From: a virus
Taxonomy: Duplodnaviria; Heunggongvirae; Uroviricota; Caudoviricetes
IMG/VR virus record: IMGVR_UViG_3300027708_000034
Location: 18,332 to 82,331 of that record
Length of the DNA: 64,000 nt
Direction: 5' to 3' (one strand)
A program made the position numbers and the translations under genes. The notes beneath the pieces were generated by a model that did no database searches, was not told the origin of the DNA, and worked only from the letters and a program-made list of their open reading frames with translations. Of the stretch, positions 12,738-36,528 are shown piece after piece (position 1 is the first letter of the stretch; each line of letters opens with the position of its first letter).

Positions 12738-13409
12738 TTATACCACTTCTGGGAACAGGACTTCGTCCACAAACCGCTTCATCTTAGATTCATCTATGCC
12801 CATACTGACCATGCTGCGTATGACATGGGGGTTTTGCTTTTGATAATAGCAATAACGGTTCTGCGCCATATGGAAATCTGCTAGATCCTGCTGCGTATTG
12901 CCTACATTTAATAGATAATAATCCAAGGTTCTTGTGGCCAGCTCGCATAGATTATTCAACTCTTCCTCGGTTGATACATTGCCAGCAGCAACCATGTTGG
13001 GACTAAAAATTTGCTGAGCCCATTCTGGCAGATTCCTAGACTTACCCCACTCGTAAAACAATGCTTCGGTCCCGAACCACTTCATCATAGGATGGGCAGG
13101 ATCTCCTGCTGCGCTGAAGTCGCAGAATGCACCTGTGATTTTATTGGGACCGCAGACTGCATCAAAGCCCCAAATAGGGCTAGGATCGTTAAAGTGTGGA
13201 AATACTGTAGAGTGCAGTATATAGATATTGTGGCTCTCCCTATGGTCTACGATTTCCACATGGGCTCTGCGATATCGCGGGCTGGTCCAAAGGTCATTGT
13301 GCCATTCATAATCACTACTGATCTTGCCGTGTACAGCCTCACCGGTGGCATTGAATCTCGATTTGATATCCTCAGCTAATTTTTCAATTTTGTCCCAAAC
13401 GTTCGCCAT
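12738..13409 (-). CDS. Ferredoxin-dependent bilin reductase (PcyA/PebS/PcyX family)
   Basis: WTSPRYRRAHVEIV...ILHSTVFPHFNDPSPIWGFDAVCGPNKITGAFCDFS aligns with the PcyA core (YQTPQFRKMHLEL...ILHCVMFPEP...[20 protein letters not shown]). Confidence 0.85.
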   Translation of the reverse strand: MANVWDKIEKLAEDIKSRFNATGEAVHGKISSDYEWHNDLWTSPRYRRAHVEIVDHRESHNIYILHSTVFPHFNDPSPIWGFDAVCGPNKITGAFCDFSAAGDPAHPMMKWFGTEALFYEWGKSRNLPEWAQQIFSPNMVAAGNVSTEEELNNLCELATRTLDYYLLNVGNTQQDLADFHMAQNRYCYYQKQNPHVIRSMVSMGIDESKMKRFVDEVLFPEVV

Positions 13410-13926
13410 ATGATTCCATTATTTTAATCGCCCAGTCAAAGGCTATGTTAGCTTCATCTCCCATGTCGTCTGACAGCATACTACGCATATTAGTCATCAA
13501 CATTTTAGGATCTTCAAAGTCTAAATGTGAGTGCGGTGCGTCCACGATCTTCTTGATCATCTGCCCACCAAACAAGTCGCCCATATGCCAAGTGTATAAG
13601 TGTGCCATGATGCGTTTAGGATCATCTAGTGATCTAATGTAGCTGGCGTAATCCTTTGTCTCTTGCTTATATGTATTGTAACTACCCGTGGGTTTATCCA
13701 TGCTTTGGTAATCATCCATTATCAGTCCTGCCCGTTCAATCCCGGGCAATGCATTTAGCAATCCTGCTTTTCGAGCAGCATGTTCGATCTCTTTATACCA
13801 AAGTTGTTTTTGATAGGTAAAATCTACCCATAGTTCAAAGGGCAATGTTTTGTCAAATACTGCTTTCATGAAAGCAGTGCTTTCGGCAGCAGTGTGTTTG
13901 TCTTTGGTGAGATCTTTTAGGCTCAT
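13384..13926 (-). CDS. Heme oxygenase (short phage-type HO)
   Basis: LKDLTKDKHTAAESTAFMKAV matches HO-1 LKEATKEVHTQAENAEFMRNF. AHLYTWHMGDLFGGQMIKKI matches [20 protein letters not shown]. Confidence 0.85.
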   Translation of the reverse strand: MSLKDLTKDKHTAAESTAFMKAVFDKTLPFELWVDFTYQKQLWYKEIEHAARKAGLLNALPGIERAGLIMDDYQSMDKPTGSYNTYKQETKDYASYIRSLDDPKRIMAHLYTWHMGDLFGGQMIKKIVDAPHSHLDFEDPKMLMTNMRSMLSDDMGDEANIAFDWAIKIMESYGERLGQN

Positions 13927-14791: not shown

Positions 14792-16693
14792 TTATACAGT
14801 TTCCTTAGCCTCTGCGTCAACGACTCCATCAGCCGCATCCTTTTTAGCCTGTTCTTCAGCCTTCTTGGCTGCTTCCTCGGCTTGGTTTTTCTTAGCAGTG
14901 ACTGGGTTCATGGCTTGATAAAGTTTAGGAATAGTATCTTGGATGAGTTTTACATCATCGCCCGACATGGCATCCTCAAGCGCCTTGACCGCGTCTTCAG
15001 CAGTAGCACGTTCTTCTTCAGTGAGTTGGTCACTGTATTTTTCTAGATCCTCTTTGAATCCGTTCAATGTACCTTCTGCACGATTGCGTTCCTCAATCAA
15101 CTCGCGCTGCTTCTTATCTGCTTCAGCATTGAGTTCAGCATCTTGGACCATGCGATCGATTTCCTCTTTGGTCAATCCGCTGTCGGACTTGATAGTGATC
15201 TTGTTCTCTTTGCCTGTGCCTTTATCAGCTGCTTTGATATTCATGATACCGTTGGCATCGATATCTAGCGTGACTTCGATCTGTGGAACACCTTTGCGAG
15301 CAGGTGGGATGCCTTCTAATTTGAATTCGCCCAACAATTTATTATGCTGGACGAATTCACGCTCGCCTTGGAATACTTTGATGTCCACTGCAGATTGATT
15401 ATCTTCGGCTGTTGAGAACACTTGACTATGCTTGGTAGGAATAGTGGTATTCTTTTGAATCAACTTGGCCATCACCCCGCCCATGGTTTCGATACCAAGA
15501 CTCAATGGGGTAACGTCTAGCAATAGAACGTCTGTACGTCCACCACCTAGCACATCGCCTTGGATAGCAGCACCTGCGGCCACTGCTTCGTCTGGATTGA
15601 CGTCTTTGCGAGGAGCCTTGCCAAACAACTTCTCAACTGTTTCAACTACCTTAGGCATACGTGTCATACCACCGACAAGGATAACTTCGTCGATATCGCT
15701 GGCTGTGACTTTGGCATCTGCCATAGCTGTCTTGCATGGCTCGATACTGCGTTGGATCAGTTCGTCTACCAAACTTTCCAATTTAGCACGGGTCAACTTA
15801 ACGTTCATGTGTTTAGGACCTGATGCATCTGCTGTGATGTAAGGCAAGTTAACATCGGTCTGTGCTGAACTTGACAGTTCAATCTTGGCCTTTTCTGCTG
15901 CCTCTTTAAGACGTTGTAGTGCCAACATGTCTTTCTTGAGATCAACGCCGTTGTCCCGCTTGAATTCATCGACCAAGAAGTCCATGATACGTTGGTCAAA
16001 GTCTTCACCACCCAGGAATGTATCACCGTTGGTGCTTAGTACTTCGATTTGTTTCTCGCCATCAACATTGGCAATTTCGATGATGGATACGTCAAATGTA
16101 CCGCCACCCAAGTCATATACAGCAATCTTGCGATCACGCTTGTCTGCTTTATCAACACCATAGGCCAGTGCAGCAGCAGTAGGTTCGTTGATGATACGCA
16201 ACACTTCAAGTCCAGCGATCTTACCTGCATCTTTAGTTGCTTGACGTTGCTGGTCGTTGAAGTAGGCAGGAACTGTGATAACAGCCTGCGTGACTTCGTG
16301 TCCCAAATAGTCCTCAGCAGTCAGTTTCATCTTGCGAAGTACTTCAGCTGAAATCTGTGGTGGGGCAAGTTCTTGTTCGTTGGCCTTGACCCAAGCATCG
16401 CCATTACTGGCTTCGATGATTTTGTAGGGCATCAGATCGATGTCCTTCTGCACAGCCTGTTCTTTGAACTTACGTCCAATCAAACGCTTGGCTGCATAAA
16501 TTGTGTTTTTTGGATTGGTGATTGCTTGTCGTTTGGCACTTGCACCTACCAGAATTTCATCGCTAGCATATGCAATGATGCTGGGAGTAGTCCTCGCACC
16601 TTCGCTGTTTTCGATTACTTTGGGGATACCGTTTTCAATAACGGCTACGCATGAATTGGTTGTACCGAGGTCGATACCGATTACTTTACTCAT
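14792..16693 (-). CDS. dnaK: Molecular chaperone DnaK (bacterial-type Hsp70)
   Basis: N-terminus [31 protein letters not shown], and an acidic, lid-like C-terminus. Full length 633 aa. Confidence 0.95.
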
Positions 16694-16771: not shown

Positions 16772-16800
16772 AGTATAGCTAGATTAGCTGGATGTGTCAA
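16772..16800 (-). promoter_or_regulatory. Sigma70-type promoter for dnaK (minus strand: TTGACA-N17-TATACT)
   Basis: -35 TTGACA (RC of 16795-16800), 17-nt spacer, -10 TATACT (RC of 16772-16777). Sits about 70 nt upstream of the dnaK ATG. Confidence 0.5.
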
Positions 16801-17038
16801 CGTGGTCCGCAGCTTTTTCGACTCCACGCATGGCTTCGTCATATTCTCTTCTACTCTTTCCCACATCGAAATTATCAGGCACAGATTCTCGGATGGCAGT
16901 TAAAATTGGATGTAATAGTTTACTTGTGATTCCTCGGCTCATGTCTTCCATGACCTCTGCAGGATCGTCACCATTGGCGATCCGTTGAAGGGCCCGACCT
17001 TTTTCGAACATTTCTACTCTAGCCGCCCATGACTCCAT
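16784..17038 (-). CDS. Orphan glutamyl-tRNA reductase (HemA) C-terminal dimerisation-domain-like protein, 85 aa from the internal Met METMESW
   Basis: RALQRIANGDDPAEVMEDMSRGITSKLLHPILTAIRE parallels the GluTR dimerisation domain (E. coli [37 protein letters not shown], B. subtilis GIVNKLLHDPVVRLKE). No catalytic or NADPH domain is present. The longer 153-aa ORF form overlaps the upstream gene. Confidence 0.4.
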   Translation of the reverse strand: MESWAARVEMFEKGRALQRIANGDDPAEVMEDMSRGITSKLLHPILTAIRESVPDNFDVGKSRREYDEAMRGVEKAADHVDTSS

Positions 17039-17042
17039 TGTT

Positions 17043-17348
17043 TCACCCGGTTTTATTTTCACGATTAGACTTAATATGATGTCCGTATTTAAGCACAAAA
17101 AAAGTAGCGTACTTTTCTGTATAAAAAGCAAATACAGCATTGGGCGCAGGTATTGGTGGATCGTTGTATGTTCTATATGGAGCAGGATGATACGCCCAAT
17201 CAAAATCGTGACCCATGATCCATCCCTGTTCTCGTAGTTCTTCAACTATGTCCAACAGTGCGGGCACTTTGATATCGTGGAGTGTTATTTGATTCATGAC
17301 CACCTTATCAAGAACATGGTCAGGTCCTGTGGTCGTTTGAAATACCAC
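17043..17348 (-). CDS. Hypothetical protein (true start probably the internal Met MNQITLHD)
   Basis: ORF in the minus-strand gene train. Its N-terminal region overlaps the upstream paralog gene. Confidence 0.4.
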   Translation of the reverse strand: MVFQTTTGPDHVLDKVVMNQITLHDIKVPALLDIVEELREQGWIMGHDFDWAYHPAPYRTYNDPPIPAPNAVFAFYTEKYATFFVLKYGHHIKSNRENKTG

Positions 17349-17563
17349 CTGCCGTCGTGATAGACACAGGTTTCAGATTTGAAAGTTTCTGCACACCATT
17401 GGCTTTGATCCCATAACTCACGGCCAGGAGTGAGCGCATGGGCCGCTGGGGTGCTATGAGTCAGTCGAACTCTGCGGCGGCCGTAATCAATGATCAATAC
17501 GGGCCGTTCTGCTGTTATGACCACCTCTGCTGTCATAACCACCTCAGGATAAACATAGTCCAT
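17294..17563 (-). CDS. Small protein, TMFILRWS family member 1 (C-terminus TMFLIRWS)
   Basis: Shares the C-terminal motif W-x-F-x(6-7)-TMF(I/L)(L/I)RW(S/L) with the next two genes. Its start overlaps the end of the upstream paralog. Confidence 0.5.
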   Translation of the reverse strand: MDYVYPEVVMTAEVVITAERPVLIIDYGRRRVRLTHSTPAAHALTPGRELWDQSQWCAETFKSETCVYHDGRWYFKRPQDLTMFLIRWS

Positions 17564-17793
17564 TGTTGCTCAGTAAATTCAAAGGTCACCCAAGAATTTT
17601 CACTGCGATACATTCTATTCATACCAAAATATTCAGGCGCTGTTGAAAATAATCCGTCGAATCCATGCTCACGCCAACTTTCCTGCATATCATCTGGTAA
17701 CTGATTTACGATAACATCTTTAACCATTCTCCACCCGGCCTTCTCCGCATGATCGTCTATCCCCATTTCAGCACCTAATACTATCATGACCAC
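17533..17793 (-). CDS. Small protein, TMFILRWS family member 2 (C-terminus TMFILRWL)
   Basis: Same C-terminal motif. Overlapping start/stop with its neighbours. Confidence 0.5.
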   Translation of the reverse strand: MVMIVLGAEMGIDDHAEKAGWRMVKDVIVNQLPDDMQESWREHGFDGLFSTAPEYFGMNRMYRSENSWVTFEFTEQQWTMFILRWL

Positions 17794-18074
17794 CTCAAGA
17801 TAAACATAGTGCGATCCCGCTCATCACGGAACCACAACTTTTGATTACTGCCTATACAGCGAGCATTCGCCGATGACCAATCACTCTCTCCTATAGTTTC
17901 AGTGATCCAATCAGACATATCAAGCCATTCGTCCGCAGAGTAATTCAATGGTTTGACCCAATAAGGATATTTAGGTTGTATCTCAGCATAGCCGGTTTCA
18001 AGACGTTTTGCAGGTATAAAACTATCAACATCATCTACCCATCTTGCTTGAGACATAGCACGTTTCTTAAACAT
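17784..18074 (-). CDS. Small protein, TMFILRWS family member 3 (C-terminus TMFILRWS)
   Basis: Same C-terminal motif. Confidence 0.5.
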   Translation of the reverse strand: MFKKRAMSQARWVDDVDSFIPAKRLETGYAEIQPKYPYWVKPLNYSADEWLDMSDWITETIGESDWSSANARCIGSNQKLWFRDERDRTMFILRWS

Positions 18075-18321
18075 TAATCATCTTACCAACATGTTCCACA
18101 GTGAGATCATTGTTGGGCACGATAGGAGCGTTCCACATCAAGGCCATCATCAATGCGTCCTTGTTGCTGTTAAAAACAAAGTCCATATGCTCGGTATCGA
18201 CACGGGTATGAAATCTATCACCAGGTAGGCCAAAGTATTCTACAGCCCATGCGCAGACTTCATTCCATTTTTGCTCATTATCGAATTCACGACCCCATGC
18301 TATGCGTACTGTGCTGCTCAT
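18067..18321 (-). CDS. Small protein, divergent relative of the TMFILRWS family (internal DFVFNSNKDALMMALMWNA)
   Basis: Motif-like segment F-x-F-x5-ALMMALMW followed by a C-terminal extension. Adjacent to the family. Confidence 0.4.
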   Translation of the reverse strand: MSSTVRIAWGREFDNEQKWNEVCAWAVEYFGLPGDRFHTRVDTEHMDFVFNSNKDALMMALMWNAPIVPNNDLTVEHVGKMINV

Positions 18322-18542
18322 GTCTGCTTCTTAGGATCTTCGATTTTAGCGTCGATACAGGTGCCTTCTAGTATGGTCATCTTTCCGGCATTGGCCTGCT
18401 CAGCAACTTCCAGCATATGTATTTTTTGACTGTCGATGCTGGCTCTGCATTGTGCCTCACTTCGATAAACTGTTTGGGCCTGCATAAAATTACAGTTGCC
18501 ATTCATACAGATGAACAGCACAGGTATAAAAATTTCAATCAT
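18318..18542 (-). CDS. Small hypothetical protein with hydrophobic N-terminus and four Cys
   Basis: ORF in an ATGA-overlap chain. IFIPVLFICMNGNC N-terminal hydrophobic segment. Confidence 0.4.
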   Translation of the reverse strand: MIEIFIPVLFICMNGNCNFMQAQTVYRSEAQCRASIDSQKIHMLEVAEQANAGKMTILEGTCIDAKIEDPKKQT

Positions 18543-18784
18543 AGTTCAACTCCAAAAAATTCTCTAAGGTGTTTCTGCACCTGTGATGCACCCTCGTAAC
18601 TCAAATCTGAATTTTCATCACGCAGGACATCACGCACACATTCGATAGCATGACCAACAATCAACTCGGCAAACTTTTCTAAGTCTGTTTCTCGACCATC
18701 CACAACAGGCACCATTGGATTGCTCATCAGTTGAGTAAATCTCAGCCCAGCCTGTTCGGCAAGTTCTTTAATTCGTTCGTTCAT
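18539..18784 (-). CDS. Small protein, MNERIKELAEQA/KFAELIV/FGVE family member (start taken at the internal MNERIKELAEQAG)
   Basis: Shares the N-terminal MNERIKELAEQA, central KFAELIVGHAIEC and C-terminal FFGVEL motifs with four paralogs at 30.3-31.5 kb. Confidence 0.5.
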   Translation of the reverse strand: MNERIKELAEQAGLRFTQLMSNPMVPVVDGRETDLEKFAELIVGHAIECVRDVLRDENSDLSYEGASQVQKHLREFFGVEL

Positions 18785-18785
18785 A

Positions 18786-19601
18786 TCATACCTCAAAGTA
18801 AAAGTCGGGATTGAAACTGCTGGTATCCTCATGCCCAACATAACCACGAGGATTGCTTACTATACGGGTATCACCTATCATGTAGTCAACTGGATCATGC
18901 ATATGCCCATGCACCCAAGTTTTGATGTTGGGAAAATCCAAAATCAATTCACTTAGATCACTGGTATACCCACCATTCATCACAGTGTCACGGGCATATT
19001 TTTCGTTGATACTCATAAAACTCGGACCATGGTGAGTTATGACAACGAATGGTTTGTCACGATTCATTTCCAATACAGTTCTAAAATACTGCTTGGTTTT
19101 GAAATGCACTTCGGCAGTATGTTCTGGCGTCAACTTATGATACACATCTTTAGCAGGGTAATGATTTGTGATGACCCTATAGTCGTTCATGTATTGCTTG
19201 AGATGAAATGCAGTAATGCTATCACCCTTGTTAAGGTCAGTCCATAGTGTAGCACCCATAAACATGACACCTTTATAGTCAACTGCTTCGTTTTCTAACA
19301 AGGTCACATTCTTGGGCAGGATGCGTTTCAGTTCGTCATAGGTCTTATCAAAACGATTGTGATAGTGCTCATGATTACCAAGCACCATAAACACTTGATC
19401 ATACTTTTCACATTCCCACTTGAAGAACTCTGAACAACGATAGAACGTGTCTGGCGTGTCTTGTACAAGTTTGGTGCTGTGGTGATGCTTGCTGATGCTA
19501 CGTACTTCAGCGATATCTCCGGCCAAGATCAATACTTCGCCGCCGGGGAGTTCTTGGTAGCCGAATTCTAGGTGGAGGTCTGATACTAAACCGATTTTCA
19601 T
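18786..19601 (-). CDS. Calcineurin-like metallophosphoesterase
   Basis: MKIGLVSDLHLEFG ... LILAGDIAE ... VLGNHEHY ... GHMHDPVDY: the canonical phosphoesterase motif set. Confidence 0.75.
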   Translation of the reverse strand: MKIGLVSDLHLEFGYQELPGGEVLILAGDIAEVRSISKHHHSTKLVQDTPDTFYRCSEFFKWECEKYDQVFMVLGNHEHYHNRFDKTYDELKRILPKNVTLLENEAVDYKGVMFMGATLWTDLNKGDSITAFHLKQYMNDYRVITNHYPAKDVYHKLTPEHTAEVHFKTKQYFRTVLEMNRDKPFVVITHHGPSFMSINEKYARDTVMNGGYTSDLSELILDFPNIKTWVHGHMHDPVDYMIGDTRIVSNPRGYVGHEDTSSFNPDFYFEV

Positions 19602-19996
19602 GTTATCTTAACCTTGTGTGTTTCTGCTCGATCGCTGTACAACTTATGGCCGCGTTCCCTGATCAATTCTGCTGTAAATTGTGGGTGTTCCTCCCACTGT
19701 TCTCGCCAAAATTTCTCATCCATTTCTTCAGTACAATCCACAGCATAGATTTCATAATGCCGCTGTGAATTGTATTTGGCCCGCAATATTAAATTTCGGA
19801 CGATACCATCTAGTGGATTTTTTATTGTGGGCTTTTCGCTGAGAATACGGATTAAATTTTGCTGTTCAATGTGCTCATATTGAGAGATAGGAACGATGGA
19901 TTCGATACCCATGTTATCCCAACTAAAGATAAATGCGTTTTTGGTTGCCATGCCACTATTATACACTAATTCATTAATCTTGTCAAGGATTTCCAA
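19598..19996 (-). CDS. Hypothetical protein (132 aa)
   Basis: ORF with a 4-nt overlap to the downstream gene. Confidence 0.45.
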   Translation of the reverse strand: MEILDKINELVYNSGMATKNAFIFSWDNMGIESIVPISQYEHIEQQNLIRILSEKPTIKNPLDGIVRNLILRAKYNSQRHYEIYAVDCTEEMDEKFWREQWEEHPQFTAELIRERGHKLYSDRAETHKVKIT

Positions 19997-21747: not shown

Positions 21748-21784
21748 TGTTGTCTTTCTATAGTTTTAAACAACTATTATAGCA

Positions 21785-23020
21785 CTATGCGGCAGGTGTG
21801 TCAACGGCTTTTTTATTAAATTCCATCAAGGCGTTGCCTTTGCCGCCCACAGTGTTTTTATCTATAACAATTTTAACCAGTCCTCGTTCCACTAGATCCA
21901 TGGCTTCAAACTGATACGGCAGTAATATTTTTTCGATGATGTTTTTCAATCCACGAGCGTTAGTTTTAAGTTCCTTGGCTTTCTCAGCTATCTGTGATAA
22001 TGCTTCTTTTTCAAACATTAGTTCGATGCCATCTAATTTAAAAATGTATTGATACTGTTTGACAATGCTGTTCTTTGGCTCGTCCAATACCTGCACGAGA
22101 TTTTCGATAGACAATTCATCCACGTTGGTGATCAATCCAAACCTGCCTACAAACTCAGGAATCAATCCGTACTGTATAAGGTCCTTGGTGCTGACTAATC
22201 TGTAGGGGTTTTCTACCACTGTTTTATCTACAGAAGCTGAGTGGAATCCCACGCTGCGAGTATCCATACGTTTTTCGATCAGCTTGTCTAAGCCAACAAA
22301 TGCCCCGCCGCATATAAACAAGATGCTGCTGGTATCGATTTCCTGCATGTCACCGCCCGGGTGCTTACGCTTGCTGGTAGAAGGGATACGCATGATGCTG
22401 CCTTCGATCATTTTTAAGAGTGCCTGCTGTACGCCTTCTCCTGACACATCTCTTGTTATGCTGACGTTTTCGCCTTTACGTGCGATTTTATCTATCTCGT
22501 CGATATAAACAATACCCCGAGATGCTTTGGCTACATCACCATCAGCTTCGTTGATTAGTCGTGTTAGAATGCTTTCCACATCATCACCCACATAGCCCGC
22601 TTCTGTGATACCTGTGGCATCACATATGACAAAAGGCAGATCCAAATACTCGGCAATCTTTCTTGCCAGCATGGTCTTGCCGCAACCAGTAGGTCCTAGT
22701 AATAGTACATTGGTCTTTTCTAGTCGTATTTCTTTACTTGGATTGTTGATGCGCTTGAAGTGTTGACTGACTGCTACACTAAGAGCAATTTTAGCATCGT
22801 CCTGTCCGACAACATAATCGTCTAGGTAATCTTTGATCAACGTGGGATTCAAAAGATTTTTATGATCGTGAGGTTTTTTACCCTTTTCATCATTTAGTAT
22901 TTCCGAGCATAGGTCTATGCAGTCATTGCAAATAGCAGCATGTTCACCGACTATAAGTTTTTCAACATCTTCTTTGCTCTTACCGCAAAAATCGCAATTA
23001 TGATTTGTTTGTGTCGTCAC
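21785..23020 (-). CDS. clpX: ClpX ATP-dependent protease ATPase subunit (N-terminal C4 zinc finger plus AAA+ domain)
   Basis: CDFCGKSKEDVEKLIVGEHAAICNDCIDLC zinc-binding domain. LLLGPTGCGKTMLARKIAEYLDLPFVICDATGITEAGYVGDDVESIL is colinear with E. coli ClpX. Confidence 0.9.
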   Translation of the reverse strand: MTTQTNHNCDFCGKSKEDVEKLIVGEHAAICNDCIDLCSEILNDEKGKKPHDHKNLLNPTLIKDYLDDYVVGQDDAKIALSVAVSQHFKRINNPSKEIRLEKTNVLLLGPTGCGKTMLARKIAEYLDLPFVICDATGITEAGYVGDDVESILTRLINEADGDVAKASRGIVYIDEIDKIARKGENVSITRDVSGEGVQQALLKMIEGSIMRIPSTSKRKHPGGDMQEIDTSSILFICGGAFVGLDKLIEKRMDTRSVGFHSASVDKTVVENPYRLVSTKDLIQYGLIPEFVGRFGLITNVDELSIENLVQVLDEPKNSIVKQYQYIFKLDGIELMFEKEALSQIAEKAKELKTNARGLKNIIEKILLPYQFEAMDLVERGLVKIVIDKNTVGGKGNALMEFNKKAVDTPAA

Positions 23021-27295: not shown

Positions 27296-27324
27296 ATTAT
27301 ACAGTCGAAAGCATTAAAAGTCAA
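27296..27324 (-). promoter_or_regulatory. Sigma70-type promoter with extended -10 (minus strand TTGACT-N15-TGTATAAT), upstream of the ParB-like gene
   Basis: -35 RC of 27319-27324, -10 RC of 27296-27301, preceded by TG. Located immediately after the porin terminator. Confidence 0.5.
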
Positions 27325-31511: not shown

Positions 31512-31546
31512 ATTATACACAAAAAGAAGGGGCCTGTCAAGGCCCC
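31512..31546 (-). promoter_or_regulatory. Compact terminator-promoter module: the hairpin ggggcc-TTGACA-ggcccc terminates the SPFH gene, and its loop supplies the -35 of a TTGACA-N17-TATAAT promoter for the paralog/pilin cassette
   Basis: Minus-strand hairpin followed by TTCTTTTT. -35 in the loop (RC of 31535-31540). -10 TATAAT (RC of 31512-31517). Confidence 0.55.
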
Positions 31547-32445: not shown

Positions 32446-32479
32446 ATTATACACAAAAAGAAAGGGCCCGTCAAGGCCC
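32446..32479 (-). promoter_or_regulatory. Second compact terminator-promoter module (hairpin gggcc-TTGACG-ggccc, T-run, -10 TATAAT), near-identical in architecture to 31512-31546. Promoter for the SPFH gene.
   Basis: -35 in the loop (RC of 32469-32474), 17-nt spacer, -10 (RC of 32446-32451). Hairpin followed by TTTCTTTTT on the minus strand. Confidence 0.55.
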
Positions 32480-32574
32480 TTTGGTTGTTTTGATAATAAG
32501 GTAAGTCCTACCTCACCAAAGCCTAAGCGGCGATGGAATATAACTCGTCGTTTGCAGTTATGAAATTTGCTTGA

Positions 32575-32802
32575 TTAACGGTCATCGCCTACCGTGTTGC
32601 CGTCGCCACTATCTAGCCCAATCGATCCTGTGTCAGGCCCAACATAAAGAAACTTTGGAATAGGATTATTAAATCCTTTAAATCCTGTAAAACGATATCC
32701 TAGATTAGGAATATCCCAAAGTAAAGGTGCCCAACACACTCTTTTTACTGTGTCATCTTTGTCTACTACAACAAAATACTGTTTTACTTTTTCCAATTTC
32801 AT
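32575..32802 (-). CDS. Small hypothetical protein (ATG at 32802; the track shows a TTG start one codon upstream)
   Basis: ORF. Preceded by a GC-rich structured leader. Confidence 0.4.
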   Translation of the reverse strand: MKLEKVKQYFVVVDKDDTVKRVCWAPLLWDIPNLGYRFTGFKGFNNPIPKFLYVGPDTGSIGLDSGDGNTVGDDR

Positions 32803-32894
32803 CAAATTTCCTTATGGTGGACCTGCCGGGCACTGCCCCCGGGTCTTGGCCTCCTTCGTTTTGAAGGGATTACAACAATAACTCTTACTTATCT

Positions 32895-35443: not shown

Positions 35444-35469
35444 GTACTAATTATACATGAAAATTGGCC

Positions 35470-36528
35470 TTATGTCAAGGGCAATATTTCAACAGCACAG
35501 AAAGTCAGTGGTATGGTTATAACAGTCCAACTCAACAGGGTTTCTAAACTTGGAATGAGGGCTTTTAATATGTCAACTATTGCTTGGATGAATGCTTTGA
35601 TGATGGAGATAACATAGTTCTGCACCCAAACTTTGATATCAACTAGCATTTGGCGGAAATTTAAATCAGGCTTTTGGGGGTTGAACCAAGGTGGTGTCCA
35701 ATCAAATGGCCTCAGTTTCAGTATGGGTATTTCAAAATCACGTAAGATAGCCATTATCTCTTCGTATGTTAACAACAGTTTACCGTAGTAGTTTCTTGCA
35801 AATTCTAAGATCCATTCTTTGATCTGTTCTAGGGTAGGCGGGTTCAATATGAAATCCAGAATTTTTCCAAAAATTTGTTCTTTGATTGTCTTCCACAATG
35901 TGGCAAATATAGTCCTGCCTTGGTTAACAACTTCATCGTATATTTCCAGTGCTAGTTGTATGAGGCCAATTATCTTGCCAACCGTTTTAATAACTATATC
36001 CCATAGCGCATGTACGATGGCAGACATAATCTGCTCTATGATTTTTTGGGGACTTTCTACATTATCAAACCAAGGCCAACCGAGACCCAGAGATTTTAAA
36101 AGTGCTTCTAGTTCTGCTTTGGCATTGTCCCAAAGATATTGGATTCTTGCTTTTATTTTATCATAGAGACCGGGCTTGAACAAATCACCTATAGTTAGAT
36201 CTAAAATTGGTAATCGATAGTCCAGCACCTCATCTATGAGGTCGCCCAAGAACTCCAGAATTGCCATTAGTACGTCCCATATAGGTTTGAATATGGCCCG
36301 CATGAGCTCGTCAAAAAGTCTAGATATAGCTGCTTTTATATCACTGACTGGATCGATGACACCAAACCCCTTACATTCAGCATTGACAATAGGTATGGCG
36401 ATTCCGTCTATTCGATACTTGTCCTTGCCTGGAAATGAAGTCATGATGGTATCAGACAAGGTCTGCATGTTCAGAGCTTTCTTAAGATCGATTACGATTT
36501 CACCATCTATTGGTATATGTTTATACAT
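35470..36528 (-). CDS. Hypothetical alpha-helical protein (352 aa)
   Basis: Long ORF rich in I/L/E/K heptad-like repeats. Confidence 0.5.
   Translation of the reverse strand: MYKHIPIDGEIVIDLKKALNMQTLSDTIMTSFPGKDKYRIDGIAIPIVNAECKGFGVIDPVSDIKAAISRLFDELMRAIFKPIWDVLMAILEFLGDLIDEVLDYRLPILDLTIGDLFKPGLYDKIKARIQYLWDNAKAELEALLKSLGLGWPWFDNVESPQKIIEQIMSAIVHALWDIVIKTVGKIIGLIQLALEIYDEVVNQGRTIFATLWKTIKEQIFGKILDFILNPPTLEQIKEWILEFARNYYGKLLLTYEEIMAILRDFEIPILKLRPFDWTPPWFNPQKPDLNFRQMLVDIKVWVQNYVISIIKAFIQAIVDILKALIPSLETLLSWTVITIPLTFCAVEILPLT

Follow-up and report, generated by a model that had tools for sequence, protein, structure and literature searches.

The window analysed here is a 64,000-nt stretch of DNA from an uncultured T4-like phage related to cyanophages, whose closest cultured relative by a virion protein is Synechococcus phage S-CAM1 (52% identity). 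On its minus strand lies an array of five small genes, g4, g3, g2, g1, and g5 (Table 1). Three consecutive open reading frames of this array, 89, 86, and 96 amino acids long in their longest-ORF forms, end in TMFLIRWS, TMFILRWL, and TMFILRWS. As the earlier note had claimed, this C-terminal motif is conserved in three successive ORFs: a motif search in six frames of the whole window found the TMFILRWS-type ending on the minus strand at a frequency far beyond chance and confined to these ORF ends, and the DNA junction AGGTGGTNATGA has exactly three copies in the 64 kb, one at each of these gene ends. The W-x-F spacing that had been described ahead of the motif holds only approximately, with g3 carrying LWF and g2 carrying WVTFEF. 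The fourth ORF with a degenerate internal copy, DALMMALMWN, was likewise recovered (g4; its orthologue in genome L002 stops right after the motif). The members that had been named thus stand, while the extent of the array had been underestimated, as a fifth member, g5, was overlooked.

To define the family we used a profile, A7, built solely from unrelated database representatives. When run against the ORFs of the window, it recovered exactly g1 to g5 and nothing else. Together with the homologue searches, in which g3 gave more than 80 and g5 60 homologue clusters, this places the ORFs in one family and bears out the claim that they are tandem paralogues. Against L092, a genome of 92% DNA identity, the dN/dS of the array genes was 0.07-0.31 (g4, 0.07; g3, 0.13; g1, 0.17). 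On this sequence evidence, the array genes are real coding genes under purifying selection. That no annotation or family match exists for them in curated libraries might be taken to mean that the ORFs are chance or decaying reading frames, but the low dN/dS, the hundreds of conserved homologues, the confident structure predictions, and the tight packing of frames with stop/start overlaps all speak against this, and we give it next to no credence; within the limits of sequence analysis it is refuted.

Table 1. Features of the array and its surroundings, with positions in the window.
Feature	Positions	Strand	Characteristics
Sigma-70-type promoter, TTGACA-17-TATAAT	19958..19986	-	Perfect 12/12; upstream of the transcription unit containing the array
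Calcineurin-like phosphoesterase gene	18786..19601	-	Pfam Metallophos, E=1.7e-10; first sizeable gene of the unit
Second tandem small-protein family, single copy	18539..18784	-	MNERI...FAELIV..EC...FFGVEL (stop); ATGA overlap with next start
DUF1482-like gene	18318..18542	-	74 aa; Pfam DUF1482, E=3.1e-5, slightly under gathering score; outside the array family; ATGA overlap with g4 start
g4	18067..18321	-	84 aa; A7 E=1.3e-9; internal motif DALMMALMWN, then 20-aa extension; 8-nt overlap with g3 start
g3	17784..18074	-	96 aa; A7 E=5e-23; C-terminus RDRTMFILRWS (stop)
g2	17533..17787	-	84 aa from ATG of ATGA; A7 E=3.4e-3; C-terminus QQWTMFILRWL (stop)
g1	17294..17536	-	80 aa from ATG of ATGA; A7 E=3.5e-9; C-terminus QDLTMFLIRWS (stop)
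g5	17043..17297	-	84 aa; A7 E=3.2e-4; motif YATFFVLKYG, ending FAFYTEKYATFFVLKYG + 14-aa tail
g3/g2 junction, ACTATGTTTATCTTGAGGTGGTCATGA	17784..17810	-	TMFILRWS codons, Shine-Dalgarno GAGGTGG, g2 ATG and g3 TGA; homology break point
g2/g1 junction, ACTATGTTTATCCTGAGGTGGTTATGA	17533..17559	-	Same four functions as g3/g2 junction
g1/g5 junction, ACCATGTTCTTGATAAGGTGGTCATGA	17294..17320	-	Same peptide; synonymous and Leu/Ile-swapped codons
Tandem 18-nt junction duplication, GGTGGTTATGACAGCAGA and GGTGGTCATAACAGCAGA	17508..17543	-	At start of g1; second copy is the former junction, ATG changed to ATA
Gene similar to glutamyl-tRNA reductase dimerisation domain	16784..17038	-	84 aa; Pfam GlutR_dimer, E=5.7e-7, above cut-off; downstream of the array; not a member

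Stop and start codons overlap as ATGA at 17784-17787, 17533-17536, 17294-17297, and 18318-18321, while g4 and g3 overlap by 8 nt. A Shine-Dalgarno sequence, GAGGTGG or AAGGTGG, lies 5 nt ahead of each ATGA ATG, inside the upstream ORF; the other genes of this phage carry sites of the AGGAG/AAGGA type. Because the Shine-Dalgarno sequence within the motif codons is well spaced for the ATGs of the overlaps, and because database homologues begin at these codons (g1-like proteins with MTAE... or MTEN..., and g2-like proteins, P0122-P0127, with MII(L)GAEM), the ATGs at 17787, 17536, and 17297 are the likely translation starts. The nested starts of the earlier note, located 10-31 nt inside the motif of the preceding gene, are an artefact of taking the longest ORF, and the real overlap is 4 nt; what remains of that claim is that the ribosome-binding site does lie within the predecessor's motif. 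For such arrays, a gene should therefore be annotated from the ATGA rather than as the longest ORF.

The same arrangement extends to related loci. Among 422-428 non-redundant members, the junction was ATGA in 69%, TAATG in 8%, and GTGA in 4%, and exactly one residue follows the tryptophan in 84% of motif-bearing members. The arginine codon of the motif was AGG in 53% of coupled members, as compared to 20% of uncoupled ones and 8% of the arginine codons at other positions of these genes (odds ratio 10, p=8e-55, a p-value that is overstated as the members are not independent samples). A 5-mer Shine-Dalgarno core was present upstream of 126 of 314 overlapped starts versus 2 of 314 control positions; at about 42% of the overlapped junctions, the codon is AGA, AAR, or CGN and a canonical core is missing. 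The junctions of the window thus combine a stop/start overlap with a Shine-Dalgarno sequence at functional distance within the upstream ORF, as translationally coupled genes do. The three junctions showed no consistent RNA structure, their folds being different and only one of the three more stable than its shuffles, and in view of these differing folds we make no claim that a conserved structure masks the ribosome-binding site. Where a single residue follows the tryptophan, as in most members, the gene end has the form YTG-AGG-TGG-NNA-TGA: the L-R-W codons spell the strong Shine-Dalgarno sequence GAGGTGG, and the last sense codon together with the stop forms the ATGA at which the next gene starts. 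In the mechanism that we propose, the array would be translated as a chain by termination-reinitiation coupling, and any cassette behind a family member would consequently gain a ribosome-binding site and a start context.

The motif was next considered at the level of the protein fold. AlphaFold modelled g3 as beta-beta-alpha-beta-beta-alpha (pLDDT 81.7 overall and about 90 over residues 23-96), with the motif in the helix at residues 85-95, and g5 as beta-alpha-beta-beta-alpha (pLDDT 86.1), with the motif in the helix at residues 61-74. In both cases, the motif itself was modelled at pLDDT >90. According to these models, the motif is the last amphipathic helix of a compact alpha/beta sandwich and part of its hydrophobic core. 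Each gene encodes a compact domain of about 50-75 residues, the last element of which is a helix of the type [TA]-x-[FM]-[FILA]-x-L-[RK]-[WY]. Structure prediction had been suggested as a check on the earlier proposal of a tail anchor or protein-binding peptide, and it goes against both, as the C-terminus is placed inside the globular domain. The hydrophobic run, MFIL or MFLI, spans 4-5 residues flanked by Thr and Arg-Trp-Ser, far from the C-terminal transmembrane helix of about 18 or more hydrophobic residues that characterises tail-anchored membrane proteins, and this class was rejected.

The alternative in its full form takes the hydrophobic C-terminus for a tail anchor or short protein-binding peptide and has each gene start well inside the motif of its predecessor, two frames being translated over 10-31 nt. 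The longest ORFs do begin inside the preceding motif, which is hydrophobic, and gene callers sometimes chose such starts (e.g., P0018 and P0145, MDYV(Y)PEVV). Against this, most homologues begin at the ATGA ATG, the strong Shine-Dalgarno sequences are spaced correctly for these ATGs and not for the upstream ones, and the few hydrophobic residues are followed by Arg-Trp-Ser in a helix that is confidently predicted to be packed. We consider this alternative very unlikely.

Fold searches of the PDB turned up nothing beyond generic sandwiches, and in BFVD all matches were uncharacterised proteins labelled "uncultured Caudovirales phage". The order of secondary structure and the two-layer packing of g3 are like those of PCD/DCoH, g5 resembles an ACT domain minus its last strand, and RRM-type two-layer alpha/beta sandwiches have both packing and secondary-structure order in common with the family. 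Neither of the first two assignments was retained: the sequence family and active-site histidines of PCD/DCoH were not found, nor were the complete beta-alpha-beta-beta-alpha-beta order, ligand-binding loop, and sequence family of ACT domains.

An exhaustive profile search extended the family to 512 clusters at 50% identity (two homologue searches had given 181 and 142 clusters). The proteins are 60-147 aa long with the domain C-terminal in all of them, and the C-terminus of most of them is RWS, KWS, or RWA. Members were found only in uncultured phage contigs, mainly from freshwater, in tandem arrays of up to 27 copies in a genome or contig of about 364 kb. No consistent family emerged when the five array genes and 184 family members were compared with Pfam, PHROGs, and PADLOC; the sole matches to these curated libraries in the 184-member scan were Gp23 and helicase pieces at the N-termini of distant members. 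The array proteins matched no defence or anti-defence family in Pfam, PHROG, or PADLOC, and a sequence search of the PDB gave no match for the family. The earlier note would have been undermined by the motif turning out to be a known domain, and none was matched in the curated libraries. A tblastn search of 50,697 GenBank phage records with three members gave no match. Similarly, megablast of the region against cultured phages gave no match, the whole genome of S-CAM1 contained no family member, and no relative emerged from one motif-pattern scan covering 185,579 genomes of bacteria and archaea. The family is thus a large, uncatalogued, and undescribed set of small soluble alpha/beta proteins, which enlarges the catalogue of phage-genome dark matter by at least 512 clusters at 50% identity.

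We then compared the array with those of close relatives. The window, L092, and L004 are identical up to ...GAGGTGGTCATGA(T) and unrelated directly beyond, so that g3 is followed by three different genes in three distinct downstream cassettes. L092, despite its 92% DNA identity to the window, has another family member of 89 aa in the slot of g2, and L004 has one of 72 aa. Homology with the relatives picks up again at the start of g1, beside the 18-nt duplication, which adds six residues (EVVITA) to g1. L092 has no such duplication, and the protein P0009 is without the six residues. We take the duplication for a scar of recombination marking where the exchanged cassette ends on its right side. 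Variation on a broader scale was evident across 91 related loci, which contained 114 subfamilies in 67 array compositions, with 18 different subfamilies found next downstream of g3-like genes. The rapid diversification suggested previously is therefore borne out. Of 1365 internal homology ends in these loci, 36% fell within 5 nt of a family stop codon versus 3.8% for random positions, an enrichment that is inflated because gene boundaries are natural breaks for any difference in gene content and because BLAST alignments tend to run on into the shared junction and end there; the p-values are also overstated, as the members are not independent samples. The conserved junction of 25-30 nt could serve as microhomology for the gain, loss, and replacement of cassettes.

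These observations raise the question of whether what is conserved in the motif is chiefly a DNA or RNA element for ribosome binding and recombination, the TMFILRW peptide being a passive by-product without a structural role. The AGG enrichment is indeed tied to coupling, the g3/g2 junction nearly matches the g2/g1 junction along 27 nt, homology breaks gather at the junction, and in an unrelated second family of the same operon (…HFGVEE, then stop) the terminal codons also carry a Shine-Dalgarno sequence and ATGA. The peptide, however, is retained at the g1/g5 junction despite synonymous and Leu/Ile-swapped codons, and substitutions across the 512 clusters conserve hydrophobicity (TMF, TFF, ATF, ALM; L-R-W, L-K-W, L-K-Y). 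Moreover, conservation reaches 15-20 residues upstream, past any ribosome-binding site, where the conserved part W..W..E.FG...RW...F.F..E.D has no link to such a site, and members in which the motif is internal or uncoupled (g4, g5, and those ending in KYSS) still keep the helix. It is thus quite unlikely that the peptide is a by-product. The very fast turnover of gene content also fits an array of selfish cassettes, kept by easy copying and expression at the junction and of no benefit to the phage, and would then resemble the similarly organised ORFan block of cyanophage S-PM2, which in laboratory culture is costly to fitness and undergoes spontaneous loss (Puxty et al. 2015, PMC4503421). Yet each gene of the window is under purifying selection, subfamilies are conserved in many samples with anchor members in conserved order, genomes of about 364 kb contain arrays with as many as 27 copies, and the S-PM2 ORFs are not homologous. 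We regard this possibility as rather unlikely, though a little less so than the preceding one.

Sigma-70 sites with at most one mismatch number seven in the window, every one on the minus strand, as compared to an expected 0.81. The only strong promoters near the array, at 19958-19986 and 16772-16800, are both outside it, and the position of the former, upstream of the unit, suggests early expression of the array block. A terminator-like hairpin at 17810-17836 sits in the coding sequence of g3 and is probably incidental. Among the flanking genes, those for the phosphoesterase, which is kept at the equivalent position, and for the GlutR_dimer-like protein are conserved in L004 and L092, and the single copy of the second small-protein family is replaced in L092 by seven tandem copies. 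As in the phage arrays of early genes for host takeover or anti-defence to which the earlier note likened this one, small genes lie here behind host-type early promoters, and their content varies among relatives.

Taken together, the sequence data make it probable that this is a hypervariable array with a dual-use junction, which would encode at once the last helix of one protein and, for the following gene, a start codon with its ribosome-binding site, would act as the recombination border, and would give rise to early accessory proteins. A single short stretch of DNA would thus be constrained in three ways, by the fold, by translation, and by recombination, and as a result, a member placed downstream of any other would remain translatable.

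As to function, we infer that the array proteins are early accessory or host-interaction proteins. In the least certain step of the mechanism, a shared scaffold would let their variable N-terminal parts and surfaces bind different targets in host or phage; neither family nor structure nor gene context gave a match pointing to a particular target. Arrays of this kind also include distant members with an N-terminal segment, 35-55 residues long, that scores above the gathering threshold of Pfam Gp23, in some at model positions 2-51 (aligned to T6 gp23 residues 86-131) and in others at positions 136-198, and further members carry a piece weakly resembling the Walker A region of DnaB/gp41-type helicases. 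Within the major capsid protein, the region of T6 gp23 residues 86-131 is the quarter with the strongest conservation and the one that holds the Gol peptide. This peptide binds EF-Tu and triggers the Lit abortive-infection protease. An origin of the fragments in split essential genes was rejected, as the chimeric genes are inside the arrays and not beside such genes; a look-up in IMG/VR for close relatives of one chimera found none. It is conceivable, though we think it a long shot, that the family is a general-purpose carrier domain that displays short functional peptides early in infection. The members with Gp23 and helicase fragments might then act as decoys, or compete, for those host sensors or factors (EF-Tu, for example) by which conserved phage proteins are recognised, g1 to g5 might be other specificities of the same arsenal, and the dual-use junction might make it plug-and-play. 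Should the chimeras prove to be decoys, the family would represent a new class of counter-defence or host-manipulation proteins.

Several known systems share part of this design. Translational coupling through an ATGA overlap, with the Shine-Dalgarno sequence in the upstream gene, is common in bacterial and phage operons. The array has the same 4-nt overlap and a signal 5 nt upstream inside the preceding ORF; unlike in ordinary coupling, the signal is a family-defining protein motif across hundreds of paralogues, with a fixed geometry of Trp, one residue, and stop, and an AGG bias that tracks coupling. With integrons, the array has in common one upstream promoter, promoterless variable cassettes, and a conserved 3' element where exchange occurs. 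Integrons, in contrast, have an integrase and attC, whereas the array element is coding and exchange presumably proceeds by homologous or microhomology recombination. The array junctions showed no imperfect inverted repeat of the attC type and carry a direct repeat instead, and no integrase gene was matched in the block scanned; with neither attC nor an adjacent tyrosine-recombinase integrase seen there, the array was not classed with integron cassettes.

The S-PM2 "ORFanage" is a costly ORFan block that has been described as a gene-exchange hot spot, and relatives of its ORFs are enriched in freshwater metagenomes (PMC4503421). It shares with the array the cyanomyovirus kinship, tens of packed small ORFs without known homologues, and many ATGA overlaps. 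S-PM2 ORFs p017-p055, which include the deleted block, gave no match to three family profiles at E<0.02 (best E 0.022), and they do not form a single set of paralogues that have a C-terminal helix in common. The closest parallel in behaviour is the modular shuffling mediated by PeSLs in the hyperplastic regions of T4-type phages (Arbiol et al. 2010, PMC2839356; Comeau et al. 2014, PMC4122927). Both involve a T4-like phage in whose early region small, non-essential ORFan genes form blocks, with a short conserved repeat at the gene borders where insertion, deletion, and replacement occur among close relatives. Break points coincide with the repeated element in the three genomes and in the 91-locus count, a likeness of behaviour and not of membership: PeSLs are intergenic, consist of a sigma-70 promoter and a stem-loop terminator, and shuffle unrelated ORFans, whereas the array has no intergenic DNA, its repeat is inside coding sequence, and its genes are paralogues of one fold. 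With overlapping genes and strong promoters only outside the array, membership among PeSL cassettes was rejected. Where PeSLs supply transcription signals, the array repeat, made up of the last helix, Shine-Dalgarno sequence, and ATGA, supplies signals for translation. The array can thus be viewed as a compact layout for an expandable gene arsenal, the equivalent, within coding sequence, of the PeSL cassettes that lie between genes in T4-type phages.

The five tandem small genes of the array (g4, g3, g2, g1 and g5 in transcription order) all lie on the minus strand, as seen in the ORF listing of the window. A six-frame motif scan found the TMFILRWS-type ending exclusively at array gene ends of the 64-kb window, and the DNA string AGGTGGTNATGA occurs there exactly three times, each copy at such an end. 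A family profile (A7), built only from database representatives having no sequence in common with the window, retrieved exactly g1-g5 and no other ORF, with E-values of 5e-23 (g3), 1.3e-9 (g4), 3.5e-9 (g1), 3.2e-4 (g5) and 3.4e-3 (g2). Comparison with L092, a related contig of 92% DNA identity, gave dN/dS values of 0.07 for g4, 0.13 for g3, 0.17 for g1 and 0.31 for g5. Judged by their sequences, the array ORFs are genes. The earlier description of three motif-ending ORFs and a fourth with a degenerate copy was real and statistically solid, but its starts were wrong and g5 had been overlooked.

At the g3/g2, g2/g1 and g1/g5 boundaries, the coding strand reads ACT ATG TTT ATC TTG AGG TGG TCA TGA, ACT ATG TTT ATC CTG AGG TGG TTA TGA and ACC ATG TTC TTG ATA AGG TGG TCA TGA, respectively. 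In all three, the final sense codon ends in an A that, joined to the TG of the stop, makes an in-frame ATG for the next gene (ATGA overlap), and the (L/I)-R-W codons spell GAGGTGG or AAGGTGG 5 bases upstream of this ATG. Both are complementary to the consensus 3' end of 16S rRNA, TAAGGAGGTGATC; elsewhere in this phage, genes have Shine-Dalgarno sequences of the AGGAG/AAGGA type. ATGA coupling in itself is ordinary. The earlier note had placed the starts inside the predecessor's motif, 10-31 nt within the preceding gene. These nested starts were abandoned because database homologues begin at the ATGA ATGs (MTAE/MTEN for g1, MII(L)GAEM for g2), which the Shine-Dalgarno sequence precedes by 5 bases; the nested ones probably reflect accidental in-frame ATG/GTG codons, such as the ATG within CAA TGG.

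Features of the array, its surroundings and related loci
Feature	Position	Strand	Remarks
Sigma-70 promoter, 12/12	19958-19986	-	followed by a short ORF, then phosphoesterase
Phosphoesterase, operon head	18786-19601	-	Pfam Metallophos; also PADLOC candidate defence model PDC-S10, E=4e-15
Second tandem family, one copy	18539-18784	-	MNERI…FFGVEL-stop; after phosphoesterase
DUF1482-like gene		-	between second-family copy and g4
g4, longest ORF and as adopted	18067-18321	-	84 aa, DALMMALMWN internal; array begins after DUF1482-like gene
g3, longest ORF and as adopted	17784-18074	-	96 aa, ends TMFILRWS
g2, longest ORF	17533-17793	-	86 aa, ends TMFILRWL
g2, as adopted	17533-17787	-	start = ATG of ATGA
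g1, longest ORF	17294-17563	-	89 aa, ends TMFLIRWS
g1, as adopted	17294-17536	-	start = ATG of ATGA
g5, as adopted	17043-17297	-	directly downstream of g1; carries FAFYTEKYATFFVLKYG
Hairpin within g3	17810-17836	-	11 pairs
Junction duplication at g1 start	17508-17543		tandem, 18 nt
Small GlutR-dimerisation-like gene	16784-17038	-	after g5
Second strong promoter	16772-16800	-	followed by DnaK
Near-consensus promoters	16772-16800, 19958-19986, 21776-21804, 27296-27324, 31512-31540, 32446-32474, 35450-35478	-	TTGACA-N17-TATAAT, at most 1 mismatch
Auxiliary cluster	12738-13926, 14792-16693, 16784-17038	-	adjoins array
Permuted tmRNA	32523-32877	-	tag ANDELYSIAA (ARAGORN)
Second family in L092	1821-3536		7 copies
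Gp23-carrying members	L095 6001-6381, 7253-7624; L097 6001-6390, 7716-8042
Helicase-like N-terminus (P0335)	L087 3658-4020

We examined this arrangement in 80 IMG/VR loci and in loci retrieved by exact protein look-up, in which the family profile identified about 650 members. Among 422-428 non-redundant members, junctions were ATGA in 69%, TAATG in 8% and GTGA in 4%, and 84% of motif-bearing members had exactly one residue after the Trp. AGG served as the motif Arg codon in 53% of cases when the next gene was coupled and in 20% when it was not, as compared to 8% of Arg codons elsewhere in the same genes (motif versus elsewhere, odds ratio 10, Fisher test p=8e-55, although the samples are phylogenetically related and p is not a true probability). 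A 5-mer Shine-Dalgarno core preceded 126/314 overlapped starts but only 2/314 control positions 60 nt upstream.

The peptide is nonetheless selected as protein, because the g1/g5 junction retains it via synonymous and Leu/Ile-swapped codons, conservation reaches well upstream of any ribosome-binding site, and copies that are uncoupled or lie internally (g4, g5) retain the helix. AlphaFold2 with family alignments predicted a beta-beta-alpha-beta-beta-alpha fold for g3 (mean pLDDT 81.7, about 90 from residue 23), with the motif within the last helix, E85-W95, and beta-alpha-beta-beta-alpha for g5 (pLDDT 86.1), with the motif as helix 61-74. Since the motif falls in the last helix of a compact fold, it is predicted to be a helix in the core of a small, soluble domain, and we rejected the proposed tail anchor or free binding peptide on the basis of both models. 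The g3 gene also contains a terminator-like hairpin, placed immediately before the motif. Folding of the 76 nt that include it is more stable than that of shuffled sequences (z = -2.9), and the sequence is kept in relatives, yet the protein constrains the same bases; no such hairpin is present at the other two junctions.

Hypothetical metagenome proteins, grouped in 181 and 142 clusters, matched in two word-indexed searches, and all lacked Pfam domains. When 1.84 billion representatives were searched exhaustively with a profile, 512 clusters passed E<=1e-3, each of 60-147 aa, with the match always extending to the C-terminal end, which in most is RWS, KWS or RWA. Their core consensus is W..M..W(C).E.FG...(5-15)...RW...(3-8)...F.F(R/K).E.D.(T/A).(F/M)F.L(R/K)W(S). 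The family had no consistent match in Pfam, PHROGs, PADLOC or PDB sequences, and no relatives in 50,697 GenBank phage records (tblastn) or 185,579 prokaryotic genomes (pattern scan). A BFVD fold search matched solely uncharacterised proteins of uncultured phages. Our best guess is that the members share one scaffold and serve as early accessory factors or in interactions with the host.

Apart from two segments, one of which is g2, the window and L092 align collinearly at 88-92% identity. The g2 slot holds an 89-aa member of a different subfamily (…YTMLALRWS) in L092 and a 72-aa member in L004, a relative of 80% identity. All three sequences are identical up to ...CGCACTATGTTTATCTTGAGGTGGTCATGAT and lose all relatedness at the base that follows; homology restarts at the g1 start. 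There, the window carries the junction duplication, in which the old ATG is now ATA and which adds EVVITA to g1; L092 and the homologue P0009 lack this duplication. Across 91 loci, we counted 114 subfamilies and 67 array compositions, with 18 different subfamilies following g3-like genes. Of 1365 internal DNA-homology ends within arrays, 36% lay at most 5 nt from a family stop codon versus 3.8% of random positions; the 36% is raised in part by gene borders in general and by alignment extension into the shared motif. Some arrays are very long: on a 364-kb contig, 27/30 consecutive small genes are members. The rapid diversification of tandem paralogues suggested earlier is supported by these compositions and by the differently filled g2 slot, and a concrete mechanism can now be proposed for it.

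Some distant members, among them P0255, P0261, P0338, P0398 and P0417, carry N-terminal segments of 35-55 residues that exceed the gathering score of Pfam Gp23 (27-49 bits, cut-off 24.4) and correspond to either of two conserved stretches of the T4-type major capsid protein; this architecture recurs in more than 560 clusters. Type one covers model positions 2-51 (e.g. GNITVAGQHILLPMIRQVYPSIIANQILGVQPMNGAVGGVFALRANY) and aligns to T6 gp23 residues 86-131, while type two covers positions 136-198. In 2226 records of cultured phages, the type-one segment occurs only in capsid genes, at one place each; the chimeric genes sit within arrays, none beside capsid genes. According to a review (PMC3014915), gp23 is most conserved at the Gol region in its first quarter, which binds EF-Tu and activates Lit protease. 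Type one, whose T6 counterpart falls in this conserved quarter, may correspond to Gol. These architectures suggest that the family domain might serve to carry functional peptides. Other distant members have a piece weakly resembling the Walker A of DnaB/gp41 helicases. In P0218, P0248, P0262 and P0335 of the …YTMLALRWS subfamily, an N-terminal piece reads YQ…GGF.xGEL.…GRQxGKS and has a weak likeness to this Walker A or to that of terminases (PHROG E 3e-4 to 7e-3). Many g3-like proteins, though not g3 of the window, start with MxKKRAMAAGRQFGKT, possibly left over from this piece.

The phage is related to T4-like cyanophages: a 1049-aa virion protein shares 52% identity with its counterpart in Synechococcus phage S-CAM1, which has no family members. 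The window also encodes heme oxygenase, bilin reductase, DnaK and RNR. The seven near-consensus promoters (0.81 expected), without exception on the minus strand at 16.7-35.5 kb, argue, by analogy with T4-like phage biology, for early transcription by host RNA polymerase and would outline an early-type stretch some 19 kb long. One of them (32446-32474) overlaps the upstream edge of a permuted (two-piece) tmRNA encoded by the phage (Rfam tmRNA_permuted, 122.6 bits, gathering score 47). The auxiliary cluster comprises heme oxygenase, ferredoxin-dependent bilin reductase, full-length DnaK and the small protein similar to the dimerisation domain of glutamyl-tRNA reductase (GlutR); in L004 and L092, Hsp20 and ClpS are also found at this site. 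The second tandem family, with seven copies in L092 at the site of the window's single one, follows the pattern MNERIxELAxQ…KFAELIVxEC…HFGVE[EL]-stop. Its conserved C terminus, TTC GGA GTT GAA GAA TGA, provides a GGAG Shine-Dalgarno and the ATGA start of the next gene; dual-use ends therefore occur in more than one family.

A cultured cyanophage, S-PM2, has a similar block, the 'ORFanage' (PMC4503421); freshwater relatives exist for its ORFs (PMC4503421), and none of those scanned (p017-p055) belongs to the family. Closest in behaviour to the array is the PeSL-mediated modular shuffling in hyperplastic regions of T4-type phages (PMC2839356, PMC4122927). However, the repeated element is intergenic and transcriptional in the PeSL system, whereas in the array it is coding and translational.
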